Shown here: positions 4,884 to 50,400 of the stretch, in pieces
Numbering within the stretch: position 1 is the stretch's first letter
Layout: each line of letters begins with the position of its first letter
Virus record (IMG/VR): IMGVR_UViG_3300035698_007036
Coordinates: 1 to 64,000 of that record
Source: a virus
DNA length: 64,000 bases
Direction: 5' to 3' (one strand)
Program-made: the position numbers and the translations under genes
Notes under the pieces: model-generated
What the model was told of the DNA's origin: nothing
What the model saw: the letters and a program-made list of their open reading frames with translations, nothing else
Database searches by the model: none

Positions 4884-4884
4884 A

Positions 4885-21024: not shown

Positions 21025-21085
21025 CCAAGGCTGCTTTAAGGTCGTTATATTAAGATATAAGGACGGGAAATGAATTAAAAACCTT

Positions 21086-21202: not shown

Positions 21203-21248
21203 GGAGGGGGCTAATGTGACCTCAAAAGTCATTGGAGGAAGATAAATT

Positions 21249-21890: not shown

Positions 21891-21965
21891 TTATACAGGT
21901 AGGTTAAAGACCATACTGTATTGTGCTATTTATAATTCTATTTTATACTTATAAGGAACTTTGTA

Positions 21966-25228: not shown

Positions 25229-25240
25229 TAGGAGGAAGTT

Positions 25241-26209: not shown

Positions 26210-26220
26210 ACTAAAATAGG

Positions 26221-27518: not shown

Positions 27519-27524
27519 TATACA

Positions 27525-28448: not shown

Positions 28449-28453
28449 TTAAC

Positions 28454-28473
28454 TAACCTCGTTATTATATAGA
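28454..28473 (+). promoter_or_regulatory. Candidate phage late promoter TAAC-N10-TATAGA
   Basis: TAACCTCGTTATTATATAGA, 150 nt upstream of the tail tube gene. Confidence 0.5.
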
Positions 28474-28622
28474 TGGGCGTATTCACATTCGTCCGGATAG
28501 GGATTGCCGCCTATTGGGTCGCCTCAACCTGATTACAGGCATAAGGAAACGAATTTCAGATACCAACCTGATAATTGAATTTGTTCAAAAAAAAATAAGG
28601 ATAATGGGAGGAATGAGTAATT

Positions 28623-30278
28623 ATGGCTAGAAATAGAATAATTTATGCTTCTCAAAGTGTCTGGGTTAATGGTGATGTTCTTTATCGTGTGCAGTCTCTA
28701 GGAAGCACAACGACCTTTACCAACGAAGACATCTTTGAACTTGGTCATCTTGACATCGTAGATGTCGTTGATGATGTACCGGCCGTTGCTGTGACTTTGA
28801 ATACAAATGATTTCGGTGATGTCGGAACCTTTGCTACTTTGGCTCAAGTTGTACCCACTAAGCGAGACATGATTGCAAATGCAATTGATGGTAATGCTAA
28901 TTTAGTAGTGGTAGAATCTGACGGAATTTCAGAAGTATCATATTTGCATGGAGTTTCAATTGCAGATTTTGCTGTTGTGTGTGGTAACCTTCCGGGCGTT
29001 ACTCTTTGGGCACCGGTCCAAGATGAATGTTCTCTTGGAGCATTAACCAGTAATATTGACCAAACTTTGTTTTTGGACGAAGTTTATATTAACAGCTTGG
29101 AGTTTAGTTATACTACTGGTGCCAACTCAACTGAGAACTACGGTGCTGAAACTGACCAGAAAATGTGGTTATTGAATGCCGCACGTTTTGTGAATTATGA
29201 TACGGCATCCGGTACAGGCGGTCTATTGTCAGCTGAGGATATTGTTAATGGATATATTGATCTTACAATCGCTTCAGGTACTACTATTGCTACGCTTTCA
29301 ACTGGAACTGATGCATCATCAGGCTTCCTAAGAAAGGATCTTGATGGTCAGCCAGCATGTACTTGGTATAATGATGATCTTGTAGAAATCACCAATTTTG
29401 AAGTAGCAGTAGGAATTGCAGCAACGACTACTACTTTTGTTTATGAATCTTCAGCTACTACTGGTGGATATCATAGACTTTGGTTTCCAACCGCTCCTAC
29501 AGCAACTACAACTCTTGCAATAGGCGATAAAGTAGAGGCCATTTATGCTGCTGATGCGTACGGTACTGGTACTTCCAATAAGTATTTTGAATTATTGTCA
29601 AGTACTCAAAGACCTGATATGATAGGTGCCCTTAGACAGGGTCAGATAGAGGCTTATATTGTGGATCCTACAGATACTGTATACAATGCCGCCTGGAGAT
29701 TGACAGGTGTAACTATCAGTTCGGATCTTACTCGTGAGCCTTTGGCAGAACTTGGACATCTTGGACCTTATGATCGTCCATTAACAGTTCCGATTCCAAT
29801 TACCGTAACTGTCGATTCTACGGCCGGTGATTTGGAAAACTGGGCTAAAGTAGCTAAACAGCTTGCCGCTTATACTGGTAACACTCTCGATGATATCAGT
29901 TTGGCAGATCTTATGGTGGTCGAGGACCTTAAACTAGTTGTTATGGTTTACGGTCAGACTGATGAAGAAGCCGGTGGTACTGGTGCAAATAGGACCATTG
30001 GGACCAACTCACCACTTGTAGGTCAGAACTATTTTGTAGACGGTTCTTTGAATGATGGTGGTGCTGTTTACGCAGAAGGCGGGCGTGAGTATCCACTGAA
30101 GACCCTTGTTGTAGAGCATCTTAAAATGACTGATGAAGGTATGACGTTGGATATGGGAGCTAATGCTACCCAGACATTTGGTTTTAGATCTACCAACGAT
30201 CTTTATGTTGTTAAGGGTTATGTGCCTGTAACAAAAATTGCAAACAGTTCTGGTAGAAATATCAGACGTAATGCGTAG
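28623..30278 (+). CDS. Major tail tube protein with two tandem tube domains
   Basis: 551 aa, biased codons, RVQSL..FELGHL and RLTGV..AELGHL duplicated halves; position before chaperones and TMP; hairpin downstream. Confidence 0.78.
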   Translation: MARNRIIYASQSVWVNGDVLYRVQSLGSTTTFTNEDIFELGHLDIVDVVDDVPAVAVTLNTNDFGDVGTFATLAQVVPTKRDMIANAIDGNANLVVVESDGISEVSYLHGVSIADFAVVCGNLPGVTLWAPVQDECSLGALTSNIDQTLFLDEVYINSLEFSYTTGANSTENYGAETDQKMWLLNAARFVNYDTASGTGGLLSAEDIVNGYIDLTIASGTTIATLSTGTDASSGFLRKDLDGQPACTWYNDDLVEITNFEVAVGIAATTTTFVYESSATTGGYHRLWFPTAPTATTTLAIGDKVEAIYAADAYGTGTSNKYFELLSSTQRPDMIGALRQGQIEAYIVDPTDTVYNAAWRLTGVTISSDLTREPLAELGHLGPYDRPLTVPIPITVTVDSTAGDLENWAKVAKQLAAYTGNTLDDISLADLMVVEDLKLVVMVYGQTDEEAGGTGANRTIGTNSPLVGQNYFVDGSLNDGGAVYAEGGREYPLKTLVVEHLKMTDEGMTLDMGANATQTFGFRSTNDLYVVKGYVPVTKIANSSGRNIRRNA

Positions 30279-30291
30279 TAAGGAACCCGGA

Positions 30292-30317
30292 TCAGGTGGG
30301 GCTTAGGTCCCACCTGA
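30292..30317 (+). terminator. Hairpin after the tail tube gene
   Basis: TCAGGTGGGGC-ttag-GTCCCACCTGA, 11-bp stem with one G-U pair; weak U-tract. Confidence 0.6.
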
Positions 30318-30346
30318 CTTAATCTATTAAAGGAGGAATTAAAGGT

Positions 30347-30610
30347 ATGGCTACTGAGAAGCTAACAGCTGCAGATAGAAGCAGGGAAAAGTTGAAGGGT
30401 CAAATCAAGACGGAAATTACAGCCCTTTTCGAAAACGCACTAGATTTTGCTCACGTGGCATGTCCGCCATCAACTTATCCCCAATTAAGATCAAAGATAT
30501 TGAGAGTAGGTAACAACTGTATTCGTAACTTGGGCAATAAGCTCAAGCAATATGATATTGAATACAAGGCTACAATTGAAGATATAATAGAAATTAAACC
30601 CAAAAAATAA
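30347..30610 (+). CDS. Hypothetical helical protein
   Basis: 87 aa, AGGAGG SD. Confidence 0.6.
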   Translation: MATEKLTAADRSREKLKGQIKTEITALFENALDFAHVACPPSTYPQLRSKILRVGNNCIRNLGNKLKQYDIEYKATIEDIIEIKPKK

Positions 30611-30650
30611 GAATTACGGACAATAAAAAAGGTAAAGGAGAATTTAAGAA

Positions 30651-31388
30651 ATGGCTGAAGAAAAAAGAGATGAAAGACGTAGTTTTACAGGACCTGATGG
30701 AGAGGATACTATCTTCATTGCACCACCGAGTGCTGAAGATATTCGCGGAGCGGATTGGCAATATAGTAAAACATATACCAGATGTCTTGTAGAGGGCATT
30801 ACCACAAGTGCAGAAATGATGGACATTCTGACAAGAAGAGGTATCATTGGTCAGGAGTTTGAAAAAAGGGCCAAGGAACTAGCAGTCAATCTAAATGTGA
30901 AGATAAATGATCTTGACGTCGTTGAATCAATGGATGAAAAGCGTGATCTTTCTCTTGAGATAGCTTCCGCTAGAGAAGAGCTTTACCAGTGGAATCAACG
31001 TCTGAACGGTCCCATGAATAATACTTGTGAAAGTATTTCCGACGATGCTCGTTTGGAATTCCTCACATCCTGTATGATACAGAAGGAGGATGATAGTAGG
31101 GTATGGGTCTCTTACGATGCTTTCCTAACGGATAGAACTAACGCCCTACCTATTAAAGCGAGATTCGAGGTCATGCTTTATTTACAAGGACTCAATTCGG
31201 ATTTCATAGACCAAACACCAGAAGCCAAAGCCATGAAGGAAGTTGAAGAGGACATAATGGCACGGGCAGAGGAGGCACTAAAGACGGCTCAGGCTATTGA
31301 GGATGAAATGAATAAGGAGGCCACAGTTGCTTCAGAGCCTAAGAAGGTAGTAAAAAAGACCACAAAAAGAGCTCCTAAGAAAAAATAA
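30651..31388 (+). CDS. Tail assembly chaperone (G-like, putative)
   Basis: Acidic helical 245 aa between tube and TMP. Confidence 0.6.
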   Translation: MAEEKRDERRSFTGPDGEDTIFIAPPSAEDIRGADWQYSKTYTRCLVEGITTSAEMMDILTRRGIIGQEFEKRAKELAVNLNVKINDLDVVESMDEKRDLSLEIASAREELYQWNQRLNGPMNNTCESISDDARLEFLTSCMIQKEDDSRVWVSYDAFLTDRTNALPIKARFEVMLYLQGLNSDFIDQTPEAKAMKEVEEDIMARAEEALKTAQAIEDEMNKEATVASEPKKVVKKTTKRAPKKK

Positions 31389-31390
31389 AT

Positions 31391-32422
31391 ATGTTTTCGC
31401 ATGAAGAAGCTGAAAGACTATTGCTAAAGATATTTAGCGGCAAAGAGATGGTCCTTGTCGAGAAAGACGACAGGGACATCTTTGTCCTATTTAAGCATCC
31501 CACTAATGATATAAAGATGCGAGCAAATATTATTTACGATGATGCTTACAAGAGAGCTATAGATGGTGGGATGCTTTCCATAGAAGATATGGAAGAGCTT
31601 ATTGAAAAACGAAATTTATACACAGAATCCGATAAGCAGAGAGTGTCAAAGCTCGAAAGTCAGTTAGAGGCTCAGGGAGTTTTATTGGCAAGGACCGTTA
31701 AAGTGGCCGCCAACCAAGAAAGAATAAAAGGGATCATAAAAAAGATAAGAGATGAATTAAATGAAATAAGGTTCAAAAAGAATTCAAAACTAATGATGGC
31801 CGCAGAAAATAAAGCGGAGGAAGTAAGGTCGTCTTATTATTGCTGGGCCTGTACCTATAAGTTTGAAGAAGATGAACGTTACTGGGACACCTACCAAAAT
31901 TTTAATAATGAAACCTCTATAGTATTTAAGGACAGAGTTTTATTATCCTTCATGCAGTTCTATAGCGGTATACCTACTACTGAGATGCGATTCCTGTCTA
32001 GGCACAACATGTGGCGTATTAGGTACATAACTAGTCAGAAAACCACAGAACAGCTTTTCGGCGTACCGACTTCCGAATACACTAATGACATGATCAGTCT
32101 GACTTACTGGTCTAATTTTTACCAAAATATATTTGAAATGGCTCCAGAGAGTCGTCCTCCTGATTCCATAATAGAGGATGATGAGTCTTTGGATGCGTAC
32201 ATGGGTGAGTATTACAGTGAGCGGAACCGTGAGGACGCAACCAGGCGAAGCACAATAAAAACTAAGGGCAAACTTTCGGCTTTTGACAAAGAAGAAGTCA
32301 TTGTGATGAAATCGAACGAATTATATCAAGAAATAGACTATGATAAGCCAAGGGAAGCACAGCGGCTCAAGGATAAAGACCTTTCTTCTATCAAGAAGAA
32401 AGCCAGGAAACGGCGTAGATAG
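31391..32422 (+). CDS. Tail assembly chaperone (T-like, putative)
   Basis: 343 aa directly before TMP; FYQNIFEM..RPPDSIIEDDESLD motif. Confidence 0.55.
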   Translation: MFSHEEAERLLLKIFSGKEMVLVEKDDRDIFVLFKHPTNDIKMRANIIYDDAYKRAIDGGMLSIEDMEELIEKRNLYTESDKQRVSKLESQLEAQGVLLARTVKVAANQERIKGIIKKIRDELNEIRFKKNSKLMMAAENKAEEVRSSYYCWACTYKFEEDERYWDTYQNFNNETSIVFKDRVLLSFMQFYSGIPTTEMRFLSRHNMWRIRYITSQKTTEQLFGVPTSEYTNDMISLTYWSNFYQNIFEMAPESRPPDSIIEDDESLDAYMGEYYSERNREDATRRSTIKTKGKLSAFDKEEVIVMKSNELYQEIDYDKPREAQRLKDKDLSSIKKKARKRRR

Positions 32423-32488
32423 GTTAGGAATCAGGATTAGGGTTTAAAAAAGAAGTGAGTATTTACGATACTTTTGGAGGTGCTGGCT

Positions 32489-35400
32489 TTGGGAGAAACT
32501 TATGATGTTAATTTAAAAACCACCGTTGATAGATCTAGTGGGGCGGGAAGTAAATCCGCAGGCATTTCCCCTAATGATGTTAAAGAATTCATCAAAGCAA
32601 CAAAAGACAATGAGAAGGCTACAAAACGCTTACCTAAAGATATAGCGTTAGCCATAGCTCCAATTTTGAAAGGGGCTTTTAAACAGCAAGGTGTTAGTAA
32701 GGATTCGTCTGGACAATCAATAGACGCTCTTGCTACTAAACTAGCCTCACAAATAGGTAGACAGCTCGCCAAACAGTTGGCTATTCATGCCAAAGCTCCA
32801 GCAGTAACCCAAAAAGCCACAGCCACGTCTAACAAATCTGACAAAAATACTAAAGCCTTAAAAGACAGTATAGACAAACAGACTACCAAGATAGTTAGTG
32901 CTATTTTGAAAGGCATTTCTGCGACGTCAGGCAAACAAAAATCAATTATATCTCCGGATTTTGGTAAACAGATAGCCACTGAAGTAGCCAATGCTGTAAG
33001 AAAAGTTATGGCTAGCAATGTTAGTCAGGCCAAAGAGTCAATTGACTCCGGTAAATTGGCCAACGTTATCTCTAAGCGGGTGTCTTCTGCTATAGACAAG
33101 ACCAGCCTGAAAAACACTGAGCCAGCTAAACTGATTAAGTTTTTAGCAGGCCAAGGACAAAACGGAAAAGACATTGTAAAAGTTTTAGAAGCTTTACAAA
33201 TGGAGATAAAAAGACAGAGCAAAGCCGGAAGTCTTCAAATGCCCAAAGAATTAGTTACAGGAATAAACCAGATAAAAACGGCTTTAGACAAAGTAGCTAA
33301 TCAAAAAACAACTGAACAAGATGGTAAGTCAGCTAAGGAGATAACCAAAGCAGCTGGCGACCTCGCTAAAGCTGTAGATAAGTTAACTTCTGTGGTAGGT
33401 GCTTTAGAGAGTACCGCTAAGAAAGCCAGTGCTGCCAATAGATCTGTTGACAAGATGGCAACTGGCTTAGCCAATTCAGGACAAACAGTGGGTAGGGTAG
33501 TTAAACCTATAAAGCAAAAGATAGAGGCTAAAATAGATAAGATAAATGATACCGAACTTAGAAGAAGTTTTAAAGCCCTTTTATCAGATGTAGAGAAAAC
33601 CATAGCTGCTAGCTACAAGTTAAAGATAACTCCTGAGATAGAAAAACTTATTAATCTTAAGAAAGAACTTGAAGCTAAAATTAGAAATATAGGAATTAGA
33701 TCTAAGGTGCCTGTTGAGGTAGAAGTAGATACCGTTAGTATGGACAAGCAACTAAAAAAGACGGAATCCAATGTTTTAAAGTTCAAGAAAAAAATAGAGA
33801 ATATAGAAATAGAAGGTCCTACAATTAACTTTAAAGCCGCCGCTTCTCCTAAAGGCGACTTCTCTGAGGTGTTAAAAAGAGTAGAGAAACGAATAGCGGA
33901 ATTTACTAAGCAAGAAGAAAAAGAGATAGTTGTTAAGATAGACCAGCAGAAGGGCTCTGTGAAAGGTTTCCAGGTCCAAGTAGAGAGTCTAAATAGGGTT
34001 TTGGATGAACTCAACAAAAAAGCTCAAGGCTCATCCCCTCTGAGTGGCTTTGAAGCTAATGATATAAATGCTGTAGCTAAGAAGATAGATGATCTGACTA
34101 CTAAAATGAGAAATGCAACGCTAGAATCAGCAAGATTGCAGGCTGAGTTAGCTGATATACAGTTAGACCCCATTACCAAAAGTGACGCTGAAAAAATAGT
34201 TAAGCCTTTAGTCGATGCGTTTAACCAAATAGAGGTCCTTTCTAAAAAGATAACCGGCAGTTTAGGTAAGGATGTACAGACTAGTTTTAAAGATGTAAAG
34301 ATCCGTTACAGTGAGGGTAATATAAAAGAAGCTCAGACTTCTGCTAAAGTGTTGAGTAAAGATCTCGGTGCCATAGGTCCGACGGCTCAGCAGGTTAAAT
34401 CTCTCGTAGATGATCTCGATAAGACTCTTGGGGCAGCGGTAAAGGGAGCATCAGAGCGGTATATTAAAGGTGCTAATTCTGTAGAGAAAGTAATGTATGT
34501 TCTTACAGATGCTATAATGGACTATGCTGGAAGTGTAAAATCAGCTCCTGATTTAAACAAGTCGGCCGATAGGCTGGTTAGAAGTATTGAAGATGCGGCA
34601 GATAAATTTGTAAGTTTAGGTAAGCAGGCTGCAGAGGCAATGAAGTATGTTGATAAATTTGAAATGCCACGTTATAATACAGGTGCTGGTAGATCTACTG
34701 ACCTAACAGCCCAAACAGCTAAACGCTTTCCTCCAATAGGTTCTGAAAAGATAAGAGCTAAAGAACTTATAAAATATACACAGACCACAATAAAACCACA
34801 TTATGAAGGTATACAGTCTGCTGGAACGCCAGGAATGGCTAGCGACAAGTCACAGTCAATGGTTGAACAAAGAGTAAGGGAGCTATCTAATTCCTTGGCA
34901 AAGCTTCAAGAAGATATGCTTAAAAATTTGGATAGAAACCTCGAGGGCACTTTTGCTAAATGGAAGGTAGTTAAGGATCCTGGACAGACTTCGAAAGACT
35001 ACGAAAAGATATTTAAGGTAACTGGTGGGGCCAACGCCAAAACTGCTGGAAAAGAATGGGCAGTTCAAATAGCCTCAGCCAAGAATCTTAGAGAGGCCAT
35101 AATAGATGCAAGTAAGGGCCTTAAGACATATAGTACTTCACTAGAACAGCAAGTTAGAAGAATGCCAGTTAAAAAACTTGTCAAATTATATGAGGACAGC
35201 CTTGTTGATTTGGAAGTTTTGGCCACACAAGGTAAGCCTGATGTTAGAAGGCAAAAAGTTGCCTCTTGGATACGCTCTACACCTAATGTGGAGTCTAAAG
35301 ATTGGAACCTGGACGATGATGAGAAGACTAAATTTAAGGAGATAAGAAAAACAGTATCAAGAAAGACTGGGCTTAAGGGTTCCGATATTTTAAAGGAAAT

Positions 35401-38400
35401 AGAAAAAAGCCTAAAGGGTTATGGTGATGACTCATTAGCTGAGCTTTACAAAAAGACATATGCTAGATCAGAAGCTCAAAGATCTATACAGGAGGGTTAT
35501 AAAAAGAAAGGTGCTGGTGGTGTAACTGTAACAGAGCCATTAGTACGTACTTTGGCCGTTCCGGCAGCTAAAATGGATATACAGGGCAATATAACTTTTG
35601 AGACCGCTTCTGGTGCTAAAAGAGGTGTGGCTGAATTTGCTACCTTTAGGTCTGGATTTGAAAAGATGTATGAAAAGCTTCAGTCAAAAGGTGGATCAGG
35701 TTACGATATAGCTGGAGAGTACGATAAACAAGTACGTTCTTTTGCTGTAAAAGTTCCAGCAGGTATGAACAGTCAAGCCAAAGAAACGGCTAAGAAGATG
35801 ATACTGGATCTAGCTTCCAAGGGAGGACCAGAAGATTTTTCCTTTATTATAGAGCAGTATAACGATGCTATAGTAAATAAGGGGGTTAAGCTCAGAAAAT
35901 CTAATGTCATAACGAGTGATGAGGAACTAACCAAGTTTGTTACTGAAAAGTCTTCCAGCATTAATAATAGCTTTAAGGACAACCCCATGGCTTTGGCAAA
36001 GAACATAGAAAACGTAATAGATGACTATGATAGGGCCGGAGTGACCGCACTAGACTTCGTAAGATCCATGGACAGTATAGATTTTGAGAATGTGTACGAC
36101 GTATATGATAAAGTTCTAAACGGACTTACTGTCGGTTTACAGCCATTGGAGAACTTAGCCAAGAATCCTAATTATTCAAGTAATATCAGGGACTACGAAA
36201 AAGCAATACGTCAGGTAGAGCAGTTAATGCCCGTTGTTGAACCAGGCCGTCCACGTAGAGGTGCCTACCAGGCAGGAGTAACTCATGTAACTTCAAGAAC
36301 TTCTGATGTATTTAGTGGAGAATCCCGTCTTACCCCAGAAGATCAAAAGAAACATATTACGGATATTAATTTAAGAGCCAAAGAGATGATGGAAGAAGCT
36401 AAAACACTTAGAAAATTAAGTGAAAAGATGCCTGAAACTTTTAAAGAGAGAAAGGGTCAGCCTCCATCTAGAATTAAAACTCTGACTTCATTAGGTCTTC
36501 CAGAATCTACCATTTCTGCTATTCTAGAAAGAGGTAAAGCAAGGGGCGGAGATACTAATGACTTCTCAAAAGGTACAGATTACTTAAAAGCTTTGGGTGG
36601 TACAACCGTTCAAATGCAGACCCAGCCCATACATGCTATGGCCCCTTTTGGGATGCAGGCAGGGCATAGAGGTAGAGCAGGTATGGGTTCTATAACCCGC
36701 AGTATGTCATTTGATAGAGAGATAAATAAGACTATATCTGACTTAAAGGGCACCCCTGTAAAGGGTACAGTTACTGATTTTCCAGCTGTGAGAACTACCG
36801 AAGAGCAGGAGTTAATAGCCGGAGGAAGATATGGTAGAAGTGGTTATGGTTTTAATGCGGCTACAGAATTTAAATCAGTAGCCGGTACTCATGAGGATAC
36901 TATTCAGGTAGCAGGTAAGATTGCTGATGCTTTAACTAGTAGAATAAAGACTGTTATGTTTCCAGCTTCTGGCGGACGCTTGGGCAGTCCAGGAGCTGCT
37001 GGTGAAAGGGAATCTTACGTAGGGGATATAACCCCTAAAATGATAAGCGACACTTCCTCAGAAATAGTTAAAGTTTTGGGAATGTCAAAAAACTATGAGG
37101 GTAGGGCTGATCAAGCTTTAATAGAAGAAGTTAATAAAACAGTTAGTGTAGTAAGAGGTGAGAATGTAGAAGTGCAGGCAGCAAAGATTGCTGAAGTATT
37201 TTTAAATCACTTTGGAAGAAAATTTATGACACGGTCTGGTACCAAAGGTGTTGGTATAACACCTACAAATCTAAATGAGAAGGATGCTAAATTTCAACTT
37301 AAAGTCGGTAAGAAAAAAGGCCTTGGTGTTTATGAAGATCCAAAGTCTATGGGTGAATTAGCGTCAGTAATAATGCTTAAAAATAGAAAAGAACTTGAAA
37401 GTAGTTTTTTCAACAAAGTTGGTGCTGGTCAAGGTCCCAAAGACAGTAAGGAAATTAGATCCGAATTCGAGAAAACCAGAAAAGCTATTTTAGATTCTGG
37501 TAATAAATTTATGATAGAGGCCTTAAGAAACAAGGACCTTGGGGTAGCCACTGAGGGCGAGGCTAACACTAACCAAGCCTTATTTACTACGTTTAAAGAC
37601 ATGATGGCTAGCCCAGCTATTAATCAGCAGTTTACTGGTAATAGTGTTGCTGATATATCTAAACTTAAAGACTTTTATATGAAGACTGGTGGAGACAAAG
37701 CAAGTTTAACTAAAATGAAACCGATAGAGGTTAGAATAAATTCCTCAAGTGTTGGTAGAAGAGGGTTACAGTCTGAAGTACTGGAAGCCGTCTTAGGCAA
37801 CGTAGTAGGAAAAGCCAAGCACGGATCCACAGTAATTGAATCAGATATACCTAATGAACAATACCAGAACTTACTGACCGGTGGTAAAGATCAAAGTGGC
37901 CAATACAAATCCGGCACGTTAAGTAAATATTCCAAAGCCTTGGGCTATAAAAAAGCTCTTGATAGTACCAAAGACCTTGAATCTGAAATATCTGACATAT
38001 ACGGAGTCGATGGTTTAGGCAGGAAAGTTTCTGAGGAGGCCTCTACTTTAAGTGAGTTAGCGTCGTCTGGAGCAGGTTCTAAGGTTTTAGGAGAACAACG
38101 AGCAGCCGTTGAGAAGGCTAAAACAGCCTTAGACGAGGCCGAAGCTAAAGTAGCCGAGGCTATGAACCTAGAAGAGACTTCTAACTTCTATTCCAATGTT
38201 ATTGACGAGTTTGGTAAGAAGCGAAGAGGCCTCATTTCTACACAACATTTTATTCAGATAGCTGAAGAACCAGGTGAGCAGCAAGATTGGAAAGCTGGAC
38301 AAGTCAAAGATCTTAAGAAAGGAATAAAGCTAAACCAGTTAGCTTACTCCGCATACGGTACTATTTTTGGCGAGCAATCAGCGGTAATTGATGAGATAAG

Positions 38401-41400
38401 GGAAAACCTTACTGATGCGTCTCAACAAAATTGGGAATATATAAAAGCGTTACAGTACATGAGCAACGATCAATCCGATGCCACTGACAAATATAAAGCA
38501 AGTTTAGAAAACGCACTCAAGAGTACTGGCAAGCAGGTAAAGTTAGGTGATCTTAAATCTTTTACCAGGTCTACAGGTACACTTACAGGAAAAAGAGACG
38601 ATCCTTCAAGCCTTAAAAATACTATAATGGATCATGAGAAATATTCTACACCTTTCTTAGTAGAGATACCAAAAACTAATTCACCAATAGATAAATTAGG
38701 TAAAGAGTTTGAAGATTTTTATGTACCAGGTCCACAAGCCAGAAGTGTTTATCCAGAGAATTTAGTAGCAGGCGAATATGGTATTGATAAAGTATCTAGA
38801 AGGATACAGCATGTAATAAACTCAGCTAAACAAGTAGAAGATTTTTCTAAAGACCCTATGGGGTCTATAGATCAAAATGAATTTATAAATATGGTAAGGC
38901 AGAACTTGTTCGAGCTTGAGCAACAGGCTATGGGATTTGAAAGAACTATCAATCCTCAAAATGCCCAGTTCAACATAGGTGAACTACAGGGTATGTTTAG
39001 TAAGCTAAGCACACTCCTATCAAATGATGCCGCCATACCAGTTTCTAAAGGCTTTAAACCAGAAGCGTTTAAAAATGTAAAGATGACTGAACAAGAAACA
39101 ATGCAACGTTTTATTGTTGAAAGAATGAAAGAAGTTGATCGAGGAGATACTTACAACTCTGGTATAAATAAAGGACAAATAAAGACCATACAGGGGGCTT
39201 ATGTAGAGTCCATAAAAAGGCTAGTTGATATGTACGTAGGAGTTTCTCCAGAGGTTAAGCAAGGATATTACAAAGCCGAAGACGTTAAGATGTTAATAGC
39301 TAACGATGATCTAACATCTCCATTAATTGAAGCTATGATGAAAGGTGAACCAGAAGGCATTGTAGAAGGCCTTGGGACACAAGCTAAGTACTTTAAATCA
39401 AATAATGTAGGCCAATTAAAAGAAAGAGTAGACAAATATCTTAATTGGCATGGCGAAAAGGTTAATGCTTATCCGGCTATAAATAGACGTCTGGGCGATC
39501 AAGTTGAACCTAAAAAGAAAAAAGAGGAAATGAAAGTCATTGCTGGCACCTTAGGAATAGGGGATAAGCTTAAGAAGGAGACCCTTCTTAAGAGAGCCGG
39601 TACATTAGAGAAAGCTAAAGTAGACTATCAAAATGAATTAGCTCAAATGACTTTAGGTAAAAAGGGTGCCGTACAAGAGACTTTGTTTACCAGGAGAATT
39701 CCTGCGGCCTATGGTAAGGCTGTAGCCGCAACTGTTGATAGAACAGAAGAAATGAAAACGTTTCTAGTGGAGATGGATTCTATTTATGATGAATTGTCAA
39801 CAGCTACTCGACTCAATGATGTTGTAACTCCCAATAAAGCTACTGAACTTGCCAAGACTATAGATTCTGCTCAGAAAGAGCTTGAAGACATAAGAGTACG
39901 ACATGTTGAAAGGGTAGATAAAGCAAGACAAGGTTCTAATTTACCTGTTCTAAAACAAAACGAGCTTATGATACCTGAAGCTTCTGCTAGGTTGTTGCCT
40001 GCACAGTTCCCCAAACCATATAAATTTGGAAAAATGGGATCAGTTACTGAAGACAAGGGAACATCAGAAACTGGTAAGAACTTTGATGAGTTAATCAAGT
40101 ATAGAAATAGATTAGAGAGCTATATAGCTAAGAATCCAGGTTCTGATATAGTAAAAGGAATGAATGAATTTATGGAGAAAGAACTAATTCCTTACGTGGA
40201 GAGTGTTCGTTTTCCATTCACTGGTATATCATCAGTACTTCCTTCCAAAGGACGTGTAACAAAGAAGGGTGATTTTAGAGGTATAGGGGATCAGACTGTA
40301 ATAGTACCAGGTGCTCCGGAAATGTCACCAGAAGATTTTAGTAATTTTCAAAAGCAAATAGAAAAAATACAAACAGTAAGAGGATCATTGTCCAAAACTA
40401 GAGAAGGCCTCTTGTCTAAACCTGGTGGTTCCCCTCAGTCTCCAGAAGTCAAAAGTTTAACCACCACTATTAACAGGTTAGATAAGGCTATAGATGACGT
40501 CATTCCTAAATACTTAGCCCATCAACAGAAGCTTGATTTCGACGGTGACTCTCTATTCGTACATACAGCAAAGCTGAAGGAAGCCAGAGCAGAAATTAAG
40601 CAACATTATGAGACTGTAATACAAACACCTAGTAAAGACGGTATGCCTGCCAGTTTTCTAGCATCCCACAGCGGAAAATTTGCTTCTGACGCTATCGAGC
40701 CCTTTGTGCAAAATGCTGTTTTAGCCGATATGAAGATGGGTTTTGATAAGAAGCAAGGAGGCAAAGGTGAAGAATTCCTTAGAACTCCAACTTTTTCTGA
40801 AGACCTTAGCTACATATCTACTGAGAAACAATTAGACTTTCTTAAAACCCGTATGGGTGACTACGGTGACATAATAAGAGAAGCCCTCGATGCTGTACAG
40901 GCTCCAGAAGGTTTGTCCACTGAGATTTTAAAATCAGTAAGAGAAATTTCCGGAAAAGACGGTGTTACGTCTGGTGATGTACTTACAGCTATACAGGGGA
41001 TTACATCTAATAAGCCAGCATCAGCAGATGCTTATGTTAAAGCCGGTTTAGAGAAACGTACAGGAGAAGAAAAGTATAAGGATTTCATTAGTGCTCAAAC
41101 TTATAAAATACATACAGGACCTGAAGTAGAGTCCTTAACTAGAATGCAGAGAGTTATAGAGACATATGCCGGATTTGGCAAAGAGGGCCTTATAGGTAAG
41201 GGCTCTGAGTCTAGGGCACGCCCTGAATTTGAGGAACGCTGGCCATCAGATATGCCTGGTTTATTTGGACCAAGGGGTGGAGTACAAGAATTTAATACCA
41301 TGTTAAATGAAATGTCTCGTTTTGGTCAGCAGGCTGGTATGGACGTTAAGCACGCTGGTGCCAACCCAGTAATACAAGAGATAGTGAGTCTTTTGACAAA

Positions 41401-44400
41401 GGGTGGTAAAGAGGCTGACAAACCTTACGGCGGTGTTGATGAGCTGTTAGATAAAGTTTCTTCAGGTGATAAAACCTTAGGTGGTCTACAAGACATACAA
41501 GATGCTATAAATGATGCGGTTGATAAAAGAGTAGGTGTGTTAAGCACAAAACAGCTAAGGGGCCAACTTTCTAAGCTTGTGACACAGCGTGGTGATGACC
41601 CTTCAGCCATAGGTGAGATGGATAGGCCTGAGCTTATAAGTACAGTTAAGAAGCAAGTAGGCTTAGAACCTTTTTTCAAGGATATGGCAGACATAATTTA
41701 CAAAGAGGCCCTGTCTGGTATACAGCAACAGTTGGCTAATATGACCCCTGAAGCCCATGATAAGACCACAACAGGTTTCAAAGGCACAGACGAGCAATTT
41801 GCCAAAGACACTCTTGCCCAAGAGATGCGTGGTGGTGGTATAAACATTGCTAAACATATTACTAAAGCCCTTCATCCTTTATATACATATAGAACTAGCG
41901 GTGCCAATTTAGGATCAGAACAGCAAAAAGCTGTACAAAGAGTTGGCGGCGTTAATAGTCCTGACTTACAACCTGGTAAGTTAAGTGAAGATAGATTTAA
42001 TAGTATGAGAAAGAAAGCCATCCAATCCCAGTCTGTAACTGCTAATTTAAGCAGGGATTTACAGACTGCTGTCCAATATGCAGAGAGGGGAACTTATTCT
42101 GAGTTGGTATATAGTGGTCTAGAGTCTCTACATAAACAATCCAAAGATGTAAAAAAGGCTGCCTCGACTTTTGATGATTATAAACCTACCCTAGGTGCTG
42201 TAGGAGATGCTGGGGCTGCTGCCGAGCTAGCTAAGTACGGAACTTTGATGAATGACTTTACGGATGCCCAGTTAACGTCATCTAGCGTTCTGACCGGTGA
42301 AATGGCTGAAAGTATAAAGGGTATAATAACTACAGGACCTACGGATATAACCAAAAGTAAAGATTTAAATAATATGAGAGACGAGATAGAGAGGCTCTCG
42401 AAGTTAGCAGGAGTTCCAAGACTAAGTGATGTTTCTGAAAATGAAATAGATAATTTAACTGGAATATTTGGAGAATTTGTAGATAAAAATGCATCGCCTG
42501 ACATAAAAAACGATGAGGCACAAAAGACAAAGCTTGTAAATAATCTTAAAGAAAAGACTAAAGCACTTCACCAGTTACAAAAAGTTATAGATGCTTTAAG
42601 AGTTAGGGCTGTAGAATCAGAAGCTATCTTAAATTTGATACCTTCTAATGTAGACATTGGTGGGGTAATGGTAGGGGCTAAGTCTTTTGATAGACCAGGT
42701 CCGGAGACCATAAAGGACGAGGGTGGGAATGTTGTAATAAAAAAAGCATATGAAAGAGGAATCATAGGAACAAGTGCTCCAATAGATACTGATATGTTAG
42801 ACCAGGGACAATTTAGATCATCAACAAGTTCTCCTCAATTCTATAGTAATCGCGGCCCAGGTACACCAGGTGGTGGAGTCCCAGGTGAGTGTGTTCGTGT
42901 AACCAATTGTGACGGTCCTCTAGACGTCAGGGTGGTTGATATAGCTTCAGGAGTCAATATAGGGACTTTGGCGTCTGCCTCAGAAAGAGTTGGGGCAACT
43001 CTGCAAGATAAGATGGCGTCTAATAGAATAGCCACTGAACAATTTGTACAGGATTTGAGAAAAAACGCCTCCGACTTAAGTGGAGGAAAAGACGAACCTT
43101 GGACTCACGACAAATATGTAGAGGAAACTCAAGGTAGATATACAACCCAACAAGCCTACAGGGCTAGTGGTCTGGCTGGCGGAACTTTAGAAGATAAATC
43201 TGAATCCCTTTCAGCACAGCAGGCTCAGGTAATAAAAATAATTAAAGAGATGACAGGTGTACATCAGGCGAGAGGTATTAGTGAGATAAATGATACTCCT
43301 AATGAGCCAACGGGCGGTATAGCTGACGCTAAGTATGCTGCAAGAACTGAACTTGGTACACTACTACATTTAAAAGAGCAGAAACAGTTAGTTAAAGATT
43401 ATGGAGATAGGGCAGTAATAGAGAAAACTCTTAAAGTCAATCCGAATACTTCTGACAGTGGTATTAAAGAGGGTCTGACAGGCTCTATGCTTTCTAACTA
43501 TATTTCAGGGCATGTTGACGCCATACTTAAGAAAGAGGGTGCTGGCGGTGGGATAGGTGAAATAGATAAGTTTTCTGATATTGAGTCTGTAATAGATTTT
43601 AAAACCTCTGGCCAGAATTTTATGGACGCTTTAAATTCAGCCGGTTTTAAAGATACTCCTGAGTATACACCAGAAAAAATGAAGGCTTTATCTGATATAC
43701 CTAATGGTGAATTCTATGTAGAAAAATTAGAGAATGCTCGTCATCAGGTTAACGTCTATCTTGAAGGATTACGTCAGATGCTAGGCGGAACTGTTGAAGA
43801 TTTTGAGAATGTAACCGGTGAACTATCGTTTATTAATAACATGGATTCAGGAGACAGAATTAAAGTCAAGTTCAAATTTGACGAGCAGGCCTTCGAAAAT
43901 GATATGGCTGCTGTTAGAAAAGCAAGAGAATTGATAAGTGAGTATTTAGCTAATGCTGACAAAACATTAACCCCATCACAGCTACATACCAAGCCTGAAG
44001 ACATAAAATATCAGGGTGCGTTAAGATCAGCAGTTGGTTCTGGAAAAGTAGGCAAGTTTGCTTTTAAGGGGGCAGCATCTCCAGAATATTTAAGAAATGC
44101 TGAAGAAGAGAACATGGTTAGACAGAAATCAGGCTTCTCTATGGTTGGCGATGCAGATTTAAACAGAAATATAAGAAATGCCCAGTCGTTTATCACTGGT
44201 GATTTAAAACCAAAAGCCCACGGAGCTGCTATGGAAGCCTCCACTATGGCAGAGAGAGCCCGTGAGGAGACTAGAAAATCTGGTATAGACCAGACTAGAA
44301 GTGTTCGTATGCAAGCCGACAAGTACGGTGATCAAGGAGCTTTAGGGAATATAGATGATGAATTTTCCCGTGCCCAAAGAGGCCCTACTAATCAAAGAGG

Positions 44401-47400
44401 AGTTTCAGCCGTTTTCGTTGCCCTTAAAGCTATGCATGAACAAGCCATATTAGCTCAACAAGACGAAGGAATAGATTTTGAGATGGACGTCTCTAAATTG
44501 CCAGAGTCACTTGGTGGCCTTATAGATAAGGTGTCGCAAGTGGGCCCAGATTTTGGTGAGTATGTCTCAAAGGTCAACGAGCTTATAGATACTGGTGAAT
44601 TAAAACAATATGAGATAAACAAGTCTTATAAAATATATAGAATAGCTATGGGAAATTTCTATATTAAAAGAGCTGAAGCTGCTAAGAAGCAGATGGAAGA
44701 GCTTTACACTCAAGAAAAGAACACTGGGGAGCCAGCAGGTTCAAAGCAAGCTTATGATAGGTATAGAGCTATAGTAGAGGGTCTTCAGAAAAGGATCCAA
44801 GGTACTATAGGACAAAGAACAGACATTTATACTAAAGATAGAAGGTACTTTAGTCCTCAGTTAGCTAAAGAAGCTGGGACATACCTTACTCCAAAAGACA
44901 TTATGGATAAGTCTTCAGGACCTTTGGGCAGTAATGACAAACTTAAAGGTATGTTTGAAAGCATAATATTTGACATAGATAAGAAAGGTAGTAAGGGGAT
45001 AGATAAGGGAAGAAATATGGCCCGTTCCCCTGTAGAAAAAGTAAGAGAAGCCTTCAAAATGATGAGTAAACCTAAAGACAAAGAAGGTAAGGAATTAGAT
45101 ATAGATCTAGTCTCTCTTTTAAGAGACGGGGAAAGAATGAAAAGAGTAGGATCGGATCTTAAAGAAGATTGGGATTTTGCTGGGGTAGTAGATAATATAT
45201 CTAGGCTCAGAGCAGCCCTACAGATGTTTGTAAAGAACAACATAAGTGAAGATTTTAAGATTAATGAGCAACAGAATTTAAATGAGGTCATAAAACTTCT
45301 TAAGACTTTAGAAAACAATTATGTGAAGTTTGGTAAGAGTATAGGTAAGAGTAAAAAAGAATGGGGCGATATGGGGCTGGTCAAGGTACCGCCAATTCTT
45401 GCCCCTGTAGATCAAGAGTCTATGCATGAGAGAAATCTACAGCAAACTCGTAAATATTTTAAAAGAACAGAAGGTGAAGGTGGTGCTAAAATAGGCGAGC
45501 GTTTTACTTATCCAGTTAAAGTACTTGGCGAAGCTGGTCAGCAAATAAAAAATCAACAAATACATTTTTATAAATACGGTGAAGCTATAGATTATGCTGG
45601 TGATAAGCTTGGTCTATTTAAAGAAAAACAAGAAGATGTAATGAAGTTTATACAAGGTGGCAATAGGACTATGGGCTCTGCCATTATGCGTGCTGTTAGA
45701 TGGGGTGCAGCTTCTTCTATAGTGTATGGCGGATGGCAGAAGGTAATGGACTCCATAGATATGATGTCCGACGTTGAGACAGAGATAGCACAATTGAGAA
45801 TGGTGATGAGTCCACTTGAAACTGATTTTGATGCTATGGGCAAGTCCGCGTTTGGTTTCGCTAAACAATATGGAGTGCCTGTTAAAAGTGTTCTAAAATC
45901 TATGAAGGTGTTCGCTCAACAGGGTTTGAGTCAATCAGATGTTATTGAAAGAACACAGACTTCTACATTAGCATCAAATGTTACTACTCTTGAGGCTAAG
46001 GATGCTACTGAAGCTTTAACTGCCACTATGAAAGTCTTTAGAAATGAGATAGGCTCTTCTGCTCATGCCCTTGACGCTTGGAGTGAGGTTGAAGCTAAAC
46101 ACGCTATTACTGCTGGTGATATGGCTGATGCTATTAAGAAATCAGCATCGGCTGGTAAGAACGCTGGTTTTACGTTTGATCAGTTAAATGGTATTATCGC
46201 TTCTATAGGTTCTACCACAAGACAGACTGGTAAAGAGGTAGGCACCTCCCTAAGATTTATATTCAGACGTCTAGCCTCTGAAAAAGGACCTAAAGAGTTA
46301 GCAAAATTAGGCATCCCAGTACTTGAAAATTCTGGAGAATTGAGGAAAGGTTTTGACATACTAGATGATCTATCTTCTCAATGGGACGGGTTAACCAGAG
46401 CTCAGAAAATGAATGTTGCTCAAGCAGTCGGTGGTACTAGACAGTATAACCAACTACTTGTTTTAATGGATAATTGGGACGAAGCTCTGTCAGCTATAGA
46501 GGATAGTACTAACTCTAAGGGGTCGGCTGAGAGAAGAAACCTTGAGTTAATGAAGACTTACAGTAAGCAGGTTGAACAGGTTAAAGCAGCAGCATCCGAA
46601 GCAGGTGTTTCTTTGGGCAAATTAGTATTACCTACATTTAAAGCCGGGCTTACTGGCCTCAAGGGTTTTTTAGAATTTGTTAACAATATACCATCAGGTA
46701 TAAAATTGACCACCGCTGCTTTATCTGGCCTAATAATTTACTTTGCCAAGGGTGCTGATGCTATACAAGGGTTTCTTGAATACTTTAGAGGCGGTAAATC
46801 CATTATATCAGACTTCGGACGCTCCCTTTCAGACGAATGGAAGTTAACTCAATCTGAGGTTTTTGGTTCTGGGGAATTTGCCAGCTATGACGCCACTCTA
46901 AATGTAAAGAAGGTCAAAGTAAAAGATTTAATAGACTTTAAATCCATGGGCAATATCGATCCTGAGTCTACAAAGGATTTACTGGGGTCTAACATGGGAG
47001 ACTTTCATTCCTCAGTAGGTAAGTCTCTGTTCCTTTTGAAATCAGTTGCTACGGAATACAACAAGTGGTTAGCTGAAAGCTTTAAAGATACCAGTGATAC
47101 TGCTGATAAATATTTAGGAAAACCATTACAAAGAGCCGGACAAGTTGCTGATAAAGCCGGTCGTTCCCTGATCTCATCAGGACTTAAGTCCATTGATAAG
47201 GGTGGTACATTTGGTGCAATAACTGGTGCTGCTACAGGGGCATTGGGTGCAGGAGCTTCTGCTATAGGCAAGTCGTCCGAATTTGCTGGCGAGTTAGAAC
47301 AGACAATAACAAAGAAATTTGGTAGGCCCGCTGGTAGAATGTTCAATGAGATGGCCCAAAATTCTAAGGGGTTTTTAAGTGTAATAACGCCGTTAGCTGT

Positions 47401-50400
47401 CTCTTTGACAGCTGCCGGTGGTGCTGCTTACGTAATGTATAAACACTATAAAAATCTAGCAATGTCAGCACAAGATTATGAGAAGTCTATTTACGGTATA
47501 AGAAGGGCTAATGAGAGTGAATTAAAGACCGTAAAAAGTAGGATCAATGAGTATTCTAAACTTGAGAGGTCTATAGAGAAAGCATCACAGGTTACCGCTC
47601 CAGGAGTTAAAAAGAAGAGACAAGGGTTAGAAACTTATGAAAGTCCTCTAACAACTATGGCTGGAGTAATTTCTGATGTTAGGGATTTCTCTAATAGGTT
47701 AGGAGATACCAATACAGAATTAGTAGCAGGATATGATAAATTTGGTAATGCTGTAATAAGAACTTCTAACAATTTAAAAGAATATCTTAAAGTCCTAGAA
47801 TCCACTGCCCGTAAGGACATGGCCAAGGTGGAGATAGATGTAGCAGCCAGATTTGTCACCGATCTTACGAAGACTGGCGGCACTGAAAAATGGAAAGAGG
47901 AACTTAAAGCCCTTGCTTCTGAAATTCCAGTAATTGGTGAAATGGTGGCAAGTGGTATAAGTGTAGGTCCAGCTAAAGCATTAGAAACCATAACTGGTAA
48001 ACTGAATGACCTTATAGTACTTAAGAATAAATTTCCTATGTCCAATGCTTTCGATAAGGACATTAAGAAATACCAAGAGCAATTGTCTAAAGTAAGATCC
48101 TCCTTTAGTGCTACTTACGAAGACTTTAAAAGAGTTCTTGCTGGGATATCTACGGAAGGCATGTCTCGTGATGATGTATCTAAAATATTCAGTTCCCCTG
48201 AAATTCGCAAGGGTTACGAGCTAATGATAGACATTGAACCGAGATTCCAATTAAACGCTGTCAAGGGTAAAATAAAACCAGAAGATATAATAGGTTCTGA
48301 TGTACTAAGTAGAACTCTTAACTTCGATTTTGATGTAACTAAGGAACTTACTAAGGCCCGTCTAGAATCATCCTCTGTAATGCAGAGAGAGGGTAAAGCG
48401 TTGTCCGGGGACATATTACTCTTTATGGACGATGTAGCTAGTAAATACAATATGGCAGGAAGCCAAGCACAGATTTCACTTAAGGAAACAACCGATGGGG
48501 TTTTTGAATGGTTTGTTACATACTTCAATACTAAAACATTACGTGTAGAAGAACGCCCATTTGAAGGTGCCATGATGGATATGGTTGAAAACATTTTTCC
48601 TAAAAATAAAATTGAAGATGAACTTAGTGAAAGAATAGATTCTCTTAATGAATTTATGGCAGGGGCGTCTGCTGGATTAAGAGGTGTTAATCCAAAAGAT
48701 TTTAAGAAGGATTTTAATTTAGGTGAGCGTTTCTTCAGTGAGGTTCCTACCACTACACTAATCCAATCCGACAAAGGCTTTACGCCAGGCGAAGGGTTTG
48801 GAGTCTCAGATTTCCAAAAAGATTGGCAGAAGTCTGCACAGGACTATTTCTTTACTCCAATGAAAGATTATAAAAATCAAGTAGAAGAACTTCAGAAGCT
48901 GAAATTAAGCGGCCTCGAAGAGGCTGGGTCAGTTAGCTTATCTAAAGAGCTATATGAAAATCTAACCAGTTTACAAAATGTTCTAAAGAACAATCAAGTA
49001 GTTTTACAGTACAGAGCTGTCTTTGCTGACCTTACTAAAACTATGGAGGCAGGGACACGTGCTCTTAAAGAAGAATTAGCAGTAGAGAAAAGTCGTCAGC
49101 AGATAAGTAAAGATACAGCCGGTTATATGAAAGGTATATCATCAGGCCTTGACAATATGGATTTGGGGTCTCAGAAGTATTCAGATTTATCCGATAAACA
49201 ACGTGCTTTAAGAAGTTCAGGTACTTATAGGGATTTGGCCTCCAGAGCTAGTGAGATCAATATAGAAAGACAGCAAACCGAAAAGGGTGTGTACGATACT
49301 GATCGTGCTTTAGTGGCGTTAGATAGTATCTCAGACGTTTCTAAAGGCTTTGGTGCGTCTATGACTGCCGAGGAGATGAAAAAATATGTCGATATTATAG
49401 CCAAGACAGATGATGCTGGGGCACAGTCTATTGCTATAGAAACCAGTAAGGTTGTAGACAATACCGCTGCTACGGTGGAGAGATTAGATAAGCTTATAGA
49501 AAATCAAGGTGGCGGAAGATCTACAGAAGACACCATAAAGAAAGCAATACCTTTCTTTACAGCTTCTTTTGATGATAATGACAACATTGCAAATACCATG
49601 GAAAATTTAGCCGAAATGCGAGATAGTGCAGCTGCTAAGGGTAATACAGCAGATGTTGTGTCCGCTAATAGGGCTTTAGATGTAGTGACAAAAGAATTAG
49701 TAGACAAAGTAGGATACGAAAAAGCTGGAAAAACTGTTAAAGGTGGAATACTTCCCTCGATATGGGATCCTATAAAGCAATTTAAACCAGAGGAATTTTC
49801 ACAGAGAGCTTTTGGTGGCATGTCCTTCGATGATTTTTCTACTCAAATTAAATCAGGTATGACAGAAGACCAAGCCAAGGTGTTTGATAATAGTAAAGCA
49901 GTTAAAGAGTTAGTATCTTTACAGGCTACTGCTGGAACAGAACCACTTATAGACTCTAAGAATTGGATTAAAACTACTGCTGCTCTAGGTGTTGGAGCTC
50001 AAGGATTTAAGAGCTACGCCACAAAAGAGTTAGAACAACTCAGAACACAGAAAACTGAGACTGTTAATGCCATCGAGACTAGATCTGCTGAAGGTAAAGA
50101 CGTGGCCCAATTTGAAGAAAAACTTACAACGCTAAACGATAAGATAGGTGGAGCTGAAAAACGAGAAGATTACTCTAATTTAGTAAAGAATACTGCTATT
50201 GTTTCTGCTGCCATAATGGAGCTCTCTAAAGCTACTGGTAGTACAGAAGGTACCATACAGACCCTAGGAGCTAGTGCAGTTGCTGCTGCTGTTGCCATGA
50301 AATCTTTATCAGCAATTACTGGTACTGATATGCCAGCGGAAATTAAAGCATCCGCTGATAAAATGGCAACAGCTGGAAAAGGTTTTATAGATAAAAACAG

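Follow-up and report, generated by a model that had tools for sequence, protein, structure and literature searches.

A giant tape measure gene with a polymerase-like region

We analyzed a 64,000-base stretch of viral DNA (the window), which forms the first part of the one-contig virus record IMGVR_UViG_3300035698_007036, and in particular a giant gene within it whose product appears to join an RNA polymerase (RNAP) to a phage tail tape measure protein (TMP). The record is 119,536 bases long and 41% complete according to CheckV, and nearly all of its long frames lie on the plus strand. The giant protein was matched by the TMP models PF10145 (94.1 bits, cut-off 33.2) and TIGR01760 (138.4 bits, cut-off 28.8) in the region of amino acids (aa) ~4420-4760, and by phrog_4211 (E value = 3.4e-74) plus 13 more TMP families of PHROGs within aa ~4240-5000; weaker TMP matches from PHROGs lie near its C terminus. 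Judged by these family matches, the product of 32474-56620 is a phage tail tape measure protein of the TP901/PF10145 type. A preliminary description of this DNA had placed a single-chain two-barrel RNAP inside this protein, at 36250-41900. The gene and the features of its polymerase region are as follows.

32474-56620, plus strand: giant tape measure gene, 8,048 aa in one frame without a stop, TTG start as listed
36173-38839, plus strand: β-like module, aa 1234-2122, with the second double-psi barrel
36635-36688, plus strand: β-like motif PFG..R
Within 36848-36910, plus strand: β-like motif HEDTIQV (E1474, D1475)
37214-37252, plus strand: β-like two-lysine loop (K1583, K1591)
Within 37721-37798, plus strand: β-like motif GRRGLQSEVLE (R1763, G1764)
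39581-42073, plus strand: β′-like module, aa 2370-3200, metal-binding barrel followed by a helical core
40208-40549, plus strand: core of the metal-binding barrel, RFPFTG (aa 2579-2584), a helical insert of ~60 aa, and KLDFDGD
41024-41170, plus strand: candidate bridge helix of 49 residues, aa 2851-2899 (helix H482-530 of model B, described below)
41306-41359, plus strand: candidate trigger-loop base NE..RF.QQ.GMDVKHAG, aa 2945-2962

The preliminary description had quoted 11 strings from this region, and a script found each of them exactly once and where it had been placed: AMAPFG... at 36635-36688, GFNAATEF...HEDTIQV at 36848-36910, the two-lysine loop string at 37214-37252, PIEVRINSS... at 37721-37798, LAQMTLGKKG... 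at 39638-39697, and DFDGD at 40535-40549 (aa 2688-2692) among them. The loop with K1583 and K1591 and the Mg-binding loop with D2688, D2690, and D2692 are both intact. Because DFDGD turned up in 122 of 20,000 shuffles of the protein (0.6%), this motif alone proves little, and the weight rests on its conservation.

Downstream of the metal barrel, the 49-residue helix at aa 2851-2899 is followed by GMDVKHAG, which is the order expected after this barrel, and structural alignments reach β′ ~1340. The helix is a candidate bridge helix by its position in the fold model, and its alignment columns include the invariant residues K2878, G2882, E2886, and R2890. In the candidate trigger-loop base, E2946, R2949, K2959, and G2962 are invariant and M2956 and H2960 nearly so; we take this segment to resemble the M-R-T-F-H motif of the β′ trigger loop. 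As for the extent of the region, the conserved block proved wider than the 36250-41900 described, reaching from aa ~800 to ~3200 (34874-42073). Detectable homology to a family of free RNAPs (see below) begins at aa 1234, near the start at 36250 (aa 1259) that had been proposed.

The fusion is shared by a large family of giant proteins

Next, we looked into how widely this region occurs and which of its positions are kept. A word-indexed search with aa 1250-3150 returned 35 proteins of 5,915-7,998 aa at 26-38% identity, and the same search limited to proteins of 1,045-3,327 aa returned 11 apparently truncated copies. We also ran a profile of the β′-like module by HMMER through all 1.84 billion representatives, which gave 111 matching proteins (E ≤ 0.001); those that are long are giant as well, and the family comprises at least 111 clusters at 50% identity. 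In IMG/VR, 47 loci encode the polymerase module. At three of these loci (L009, L036, and L010), the longest frame starts after the β-like module or stops early, and the giant gene may there be split, frameshifted, or written in another code.

BLAST coverage over the 35 relatives delimited three conserved blocks, at aa ~800-2100, ~2400-3200, and ~4000-5900. In a whole-length alignment of 25 proteins (24-35% identity), the invariant positions included E1474, D1475, G1581, K1583, R1587, K1591, G1592, V1593, R1763, and G1764 in the β-like module and R2579, P2581, Q2685, L2687, D2688, D2690, G2691, D2692, and H2697 in the β′-like module. The proposed catalytic positions were invariant throughout alignments at 24-43% identity.

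We then counted motifs and module order over 254 stored proteins, with the window's own protein left out, by matching them with hidden Markov models built from the module alignments. DxDGD was present in all 98 relatives that span the metal loop (80 with DFDGD, 15 with DYDGD, and 1 each with DHDGD, DIDGD, and DLDGD). Likewise, all 86 relatives that span the lysine loop carried K-x7-KG, and 80 carried the full G[RK]KxxxRxGxKG. Among the 77 proteins of at least 4,000 aa, 71 hold the β-like module, the β′-like module, and the TMP core, and the order of the three is the same in 71 of 71; of the remaining six, four are without a detectable β-like match and two without a TMP core. More distant members, of 4,089-5,563 aa, follow the same plan. 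The recurrence of one three-module architecture in 71 of 77 relatives from independent assemblies excludes both chance and an assembly chimera, the latter having been named in the preliminary description as a possible source of the fusion.

Public reads bear on the window itself as well. On 37000-46900, contigs from four runs (labeled salt lake metagenome) showed 0 differing letters in the pieces shown; these pieces are all shorter than 820 bases and none is spanning, and they neither prove nor disprove continuity. No RNA run was among those listed for the window sequence. Searches of 50,697 GenBank phage records by tblastn and megablast gave no match, nor did a single-sequence scan of IMG/VR.

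Fold models point to two different RNAP subunits

The fold tool accepted at most 1,200 residues, and the two modules were folded separately, with alignments built from DNA references to the IMG/VR loci (A4, β-like, 35 rows; A5, β′-like, 37 rows). Model B, of the β′-like module (aa 2370-3200), reached a predicted local distance difference test score (pLDDT) of 79.7 and a predicted template modeling score (pTM) of 0.74. When it was compared with the PDB by Foldseek, the best 50 rows were all chains A or M from entries of Pol I, II, and III and of the African swine fever virus (ASFV) polymerase (E values from 3.3e-3 to 4e-2, probability up to 0.84). By the usual naming of entries, chains A and D are presumably the largest RNAP subunits, and Pol II chains A were named RPB1 in our PDB profile search. 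The comparison of model B with BFVD gave a mixed list (E values of 2.6e-3 and above), whose high-probability rows include RNAP chains of ASFV, cowpox, Mimivirus, and Pithovirus. The non-RNAP rows in a structure-match list for this model were helical bundles with ~100-170 residues aligned. The structural alignment of the β′-like module spans Escherichia coli β′ 291 to 1341, and across the alignments of the modules with multisubunit RNAPs the sequence identity was 8-18%.

Model A, of the β-like module (aa 1380-2110), was built with lower confidence (pLDDT of 70, pTM of 0.60). In a structure-match list for this model, RNAP chains held 8 of the top 50 places, AR9, Pol III, and phiKZ among them, the rest being helical hairpins of ~70 residues; 6j9e_C and 8qma_A were checked and are β subunits. 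According to these models, the modules, each folded alone, identify different catalytic subunits of RNAP, and their order is the correct one. A complex prediction with A5 1-610 and A4 45-425 scored 0.00 against a mark of 0.32, with no controls run, and speaks neither for nor against the pairing. P23-45 gp96, phi14:2 gp66, QDE-1, and YonO were not among the structure matches listed (best 50 rows), which excludes none of them.

A family of free single-chain RNAPs links the region to known polymerases

We aligned family profiles with single E. coli sequences by hhalign. These alignments recovered the catalytic loops only: the single best local match per profile fell on RpoC 456-480, the NADFDGD stretch (E value = 0.0053), and on RpoB 1063-1076 (GDKMAGRHGNKGV; E value = 0.17), respectively. 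These are the counterparts that the preliminary description had named; both matches are short and not significant alone. Its claim of colinearity with cellular RNAP stands at the level of the fold; at that of the sequence, it is confined to short motifs.

A stronger link came from two more complete relatives, G002 (268,764 bases, 100% complete) and G003 (228,458 bases, 86% complete), in which PF00623 matched at a second place, within an RNAP that stands on its own.

G002, locus L055, 4212-7520, minus strand: free single-chain RNAP of 1,102 aa (PF00623, 25.6 bits, cut-off 25.3)
G003, locus L056, 2335-5592, plus strand: free single-chain RNAP of 1,085 aa (PF00623, 24.1 bits)

In both proteins, PF00623 matches near aa 720-830 and PF00562 matches weakly near aa 300-470 (16.5 and 18.0 bits); the two are candidates for a non-virion polymerase. 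The next large open reading frame (ORF) after the free RNAP in G003 encodes a ResIII/DEAD helicase interrupted by a LAGLIDADG domain. At E ≤ 0.001, the family of the free enzyme numbers 235 proteins; of the 120 listed, many have precomputed matches to both RNAP domains of Pfam, and the sources name family members only "hypothetical protein." A profile of 40 members (A7) matched bacterial β in the PDB (E value = 2e-5, around the lysine loop), β′/A′ chains (E value of ~0.02), and gp96 of Thermus phage P23-45 (8H2N and 8H2M, E values of 0.03-0.04).

The β-like alignment A4 matched A7 at a probability of 99.2% (hhalign, E value = 2.5e-19, 412 columns). With aa 780-3220, the match rose to 99.45% (E value = 5.1e-22, 507 columns), pairing aa 1234-2122 of the window protein with aa 136-683 of the free enzyme, and a second, colinear match paired aa 2579-2718 with A7 767-834 (RFPxxG...LDFDGD; 65.9%, E value = 5.7e-5). 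On this profile evidence, the β-like module is homologous to the family of free single-chain RNAPs of ~1,100 aa. That family differs from the TMP version in standing alone, in being half the size, and in being without its large inserts; moreover, it reaches or nears the Pfam RNAP cut-offs and matches bacterial β in the PDB, whereas the TMP modules do not. The free RNAP was found in the records of 2 of 10 relatives (G002 and G003), both of which also have the TMP-fused enzyme, and two more co-occurrences are hinted at by equal longest contigs (P0004 and P0233, 311,571; P0024 and P0136, 275,832).

Other parts of the giant protein and its gene neighborhood

The remaining features of the giant protein, and the genes identified upstream of it, are the following.

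9079-10815, plus strand: large terminase (PHROGs match)
12112-14100, plus strand: portal (PHROGs match)
17315-18388, plus strand: major head protein (PHROGs match)
32474-34873, plus strand: N-terminal variable region, aa 1-800, rich in Lys, Ala, and Ser; BLAST coverage by 2-15 of 35 relatives, no family match
34874-36172, plus strand: conserved region before the polymerase core, aa 801-1233; covered by 32-35 of 35 relatives
38840-39580, plus strand: variable linker between the modules, aa 2123-2369; BLAST coverage drops to 13-25 of 35 relatives
43355-43759, plus strand: PD-(D/E)XK nuclease-like motif set (G..H, E, GHVD, DFK, QVNVY), aa 3628-3762, found by regular expression
44471-50173, plus strand: conserved tape measure block, aa ~4000-5900; coverage by 24-35 of 35 relatives, curated core at ~45737-46747
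47372-47437, plus strand: hydrophobic segment, aa 4967-4988, a possible membrane helix (Kyte-Doolittle, 19-residue window, ≥1.5)
50819-50875, plus strand: second hydrophobic segment (Kyte-Doolittle, 19-residue window, ≥1.5)
51047-51709, plus strand: five tandem repeats of 40-49 aa (xFDAQxKARGLKSS..HxLKGxG), aa 6192-6412, seen in the translation
54281-54502, plus strand: C-terminal TMP motif (GGPTDDKVP...SPGEYV), matched by phrog_25241 (tail length tape measure protein, E value = 3e-14)

The terminase, portal, and major head genes precede the giant gene on the same strand, an arrangement in line with a TMP gene. Between the head genes and the TMP gene (19304-32422), ten ORFs gave no significant match to Pfam, and six of these gave none to PHROGs; tail tube, sheath, and chaperones were not identified there. 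A PKD domain below the cut-off, in a 763-aa ORF, was the sole match above noise. Beyond the window, the same record holds very large ORFs at 72061-77346 (1,761 aa, no PHROG match) and 77751-84716 (2,321 aa). DxDxD strings in other ORFs of the record, such as the 1,761-aa one, were rejected as candidates, being without polymerase-like context or a PHROG match.

Within the giant protein, the conserved region at aa 801-1233 did not match the free RNAP family significantly (hhalign, E value = 0.052). Recognition in the ESM Atlas was low for aa 801-1379 and aa 3201-4000, where the matches were unnamed clusters and TMP clusters at ≤0.88. Two of the five tandem repeats are nearly identical, and G+C is 0.445 in 50001-52000, compared with ~0.39-0.41 in most 2-kb bins. 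Weaker copies of the C-terminal TMP motif occur near aa 6029 and aa 6472.

The nuclease-like motif set follows the polymerase and precedes the TMP core. With a looser regular expression it was found in 33 of 75 relatives, and Pfam at E ≤ 1 gave no match on aa 3628-3762. In three runs (X1, X2, and X3), a contig matches the window from 42575 to 44909 with both flanks unlike the window; this 2.3-kb piece, which includes the nuclease-like motif, is seemingly common to a co-occurring relative. Six relatives (P0031, P0032, P0034, P0044, P0045, and P0047) have a precomputed PF00929 domain (RNase T/DEDD 3′-5′ exonuclease), and one source names a fragment "3′-5′ exonuclease." The Pfam scan found no match of this type in the window's own giant protein.

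A polymerase probably carried into the cell by the tape measure protein

The invariant motifs, the fold models, the profile link to the free RNAPs, the TMP models, and the recurrence in 71 of 77 relatives together support a single-chain β/β′ two-barrel RNAP inside the TMP, as the preliminary description had proposed. They support the view that aa ~1234-3200 form a predicted β-then-β′ fusion, with a variable N-terminal region ahead of it and the ruler part of the protein after it. We infer that the enzyme is active, packaged, ejected, and able to transcribe early genes independently of the host. Taken whole, the reading of this protein as a TMP with an embedded RNAP that is injected and transcribes the first genes seems to us likely.

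A tape measure protein is housed in the tail and is expelled from it during infection, and in tails of the lambda type its C terminus is at the tail tip. The giant protein would accordingly be built into the tail with its C terminus at the tip, and the polymerase, being N terminal, would be closest to the head and the DNA. When infection begins, the ruler would be expelled and would form or line a passage through the envelope; the polymerase would leave last, meet the leading end of the genome, and transcribe the first genes without the host RNAP. Transcription may also assist the entry of a genome that is well over 200 kb long. At least some relatives seem to turn next to the free paralogous RNAP of ~1,100 aa, as in the two-polymerase scheme of P23-45, and the free RNAPs of G002 and G003 faintly suggest, by analogy, that the same scheme operates there.

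The precedent that the preliminary description had named, a virion RNAP fused to the TMP of P23-45, is correct. According to PMC10770324, gp96 of P23-45 is a TMP of 5,002 aa; the ~1,100 aa at its N terminus make up a two-barrel RNAP that is active, virion borne, and clamp-less and has DFDGD at 779-783. gp96 was detected in virions with antibodies to the RNAP part (PMC10770324, Fig. 1), it transcribes pre-early genes, including the gene of the free RNAP gp64, and gp96 and gp64 seemingly stem from an old duplication (PMC10770324).

Several results weigh against this reading. None of the curated families that we searched recognizes the polymerase region: when Pfam, PHROGs, and NCBIfam were run on five overlapping pieces of the giant protein, aa 1-4200 were without a match, the only match to PF00623 in the record, at 40529-40603 on DFDGD, stayed at 14.3 bits (cut-off 25.3), and no place in the record matched PF00562. 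We attribute the unmet Pfam cut-offs to sequence divergence rather than to a missing feature. A phmmer search of the PDB with aa 1177-3176 gave 0 matches, and PDB profile searches with A2, A4, and A5 gave coiled-coil noise or RPB1 at an E value of 0.05, mostly low complexity. The β′-like module is linked to the free RNAP family only weakly (28-66%), its profile alone reaching 28% with A7. Neither fold model reached E ≤ 0.001 against the PDB by Foldseek; with model A, that search gave helical noise only and no RNAP match, E. coli β standing at rank 28 (E value = 1.8), and residues 19-55, 73-95, and 118-138 of the model, which lie in the barrel itself and include E1474/D1475, have a pLDDT of <50. 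The free RNAP was not found in the records of the 8 other relatives (40-89% complete), nor was a second RNAP in the window's own 119.5-kb record (41% complete). The core of ~2,000 aa is twice the size of the flat, clamp-less enzyme of gp96, and its storage in the tail and passage through it are hard to account for.

The best surviving alternative keeps an active polymerase and gives it a mainly mechanical or priming job: it would pull the long genome in, or make primers or other RNA, while early genes are read by the host RNAP or the free phage RNAP. The conserved catalytic residues suit this idea, being needed for any polymerase role, as do the large genomes of the relatives (228-269 kb), the separate free RNAP that in some of them could carry out expression, and the nuclease-like and exonuclease domains found in the same proteins. 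On the other hand, a free RNAP was found in only 2 of the 10 relatives' records, and the TMP-fused enzyme of P23-45, the only case tested, does transcribe pre-early genes (PMC10770324). A mechanical role and one in expression do not exclude each other; that the mechanical one is the main role we regard as unlikely.

A polyprotein whose polymerase part is cleaved away ahead of tail assembly or in its course, to act in the producing cell only and not be delivered by the virion, is considerably less probable still. Variable linkers do flank the module (aa 2123-2369 and ~3200-4000), and a folded core of ~2,000 aa would be hard to fit into a tail tube, given the dimensions of such tubes. However, fusion and order are kept in 71 of 71 relatives at 24-43% identity, an argument that the linkage itself has a function; no protease family of Pfam, PHROGs, or NCBIfam matched the protein; and gp96 was detected in P23-45 virions with antibodies to its RNAP part (PMC10770324).

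We give very little credence to a dead polymerase relic that the ruler retains for structure or DNA binding: the sequence has diverged too far for Pfam and the β-like barrel is partly a low-confidence fold, but the three aspartates are kept in 98 of 98 relatives and both lysines in 86 of 86, together with further residues of the active-site region. Chance resemblance of motifs or an assembly artifact, to which the 0.6% of shuffles with DFDGD and the short, nonspanning public contigs on 37000-46900 might be thought to point, we count as already refuted by the two modules independently matching two different RNAP subunits by fold, by the hhalign match of 99.45% to an RNAP family, and by the same three-module frame in dozens of independent assemblies.

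Returning to the injected polymerase, we offer one extension tentatively, as something that we doubt more than we credit: an old, separate β-β′ lineage, nearer to the multisubunit fold than to the phage single-subunit clade, may have joined the ruler independently of the Thermus case and become a pore-anchored motor, both for expression and for reeling in a genome of >200 kb, aided by a co-injected nuclease, with the free paralogue stemming from one ancient duplication.

If the injection of a ruler-tethered polymerase is real, it would be a widespread strategy of large uncultured phages and not a curiosity. The family would be a source of natural minimal single-chain β-β′ enzymes for study, and thousands of residues now labeled "tape measure" or "hypothetical" would merit annotation as polymerase.

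Comparison with known systems

Only for one group of Thermus phages has the fusion of a polymerase to the ruler been demonstrated so far, and we now find it in a different and much larger protein. Our literature search found PMC10770324 alone for a TMP-fused RNAP; its Supplementary Data 3 and 4, which cover 23 RNAP families and survey the two-barrel enzymes of viruses, may list the present family. The parts of PMC12619734 available to us concern a different lineage, with no TMP or RNAP found; those of PMC7824862 make no mention of a TMP-RNAP fusion.

Polymerases that enter the cell within very large particle-carried proteins are known elsewhere too. phi14:2 gp66, of a crAss-like phage (PDB 6VR4), is a two-barrel RNAP of the other major clade, carried in the particle within a very large protein and injected to start transcription (PMC10770324). 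The N4 virion RNAP (vRNAP) is likewise particle-carried, very large, and injected, and, unlike the window enzyme, gp66 and N4 vRNAP are not part of a TMP. We take N4 vRNAP to be of the T7 type and not two-barrel. Neither gp66 nor N4 vRNAP was among the structure matches listed, which excludes nothing.

The best structural matches of both modules are multisubunit RNAPs (bacterial β/β′, RPB2/RPB1, ASFV, vaccinia, and the split subunits of jumbo phages). The module order, β then β′, is the gene order of the cellular subunits, and a two-lysine loop and a loop of the NADFDGD type are common to both. Unlike the multisubunit enzymes, that of the window is one chain, fused into a structural protein of the virion, with no α, ω, or σ partner known; the N-terminal ~290 residues of β′ are not covered by the β′-like model or the aligned ranges.

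The closest likeness in plan is to gp96 (also of P74-26, G20c, and TSP4; PDB 8H2M and 8H2N), which has a two-barrel RNAP with DFDGD N terminal to the TMP part in one polypeptide and, like the window protein, places the lysine barrel before the metal barrel. Furthermore, a separate free RNAP occurs within the same phage group both for P23-45 and for the window's relatives G002 and G003. The differences are as clear. The core is ~2,000 aa long and starts at aa ~1234 in the window protein, compared with ~1,100 aa from residue 1 in gp96, and the total size is 8,048 aa compared with 5,002 aa. gp96 is clamp-less and flat and has a metallopeptidase domain, whereas Pfam found no metallopeptidase in the window protein. 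Aligned with gp96 1-1200 by hhalign, A5 reached 1% (E value = 0.054, DFDGD only) and A4 reached 0.6%, with no homology detectable beyond the loop; 8H2M and 8H2N were not among the PDB profile matches listed for A2, A4, and A5. The best fold matches of the window protein are multisubunit β/β′ chains, and the absence of gp96 from the rows listed excludes nothing. Because the plan is shared but the sequence is not, the core is twice as long, ~1,230 residues stand ahead of it, and the fold matches are to multisubunit enzymes, we do not file the window protein in the gp96 family. Its own family, without detectable sequence kinship to gp96 and nearest in fold to cellular β/β′, is in our reading a lineage separate from gp96 that would work in a similar way, and the window protein is a real and ordinary member of this large, unpublished lineage of TMP-embedded RNAPs.

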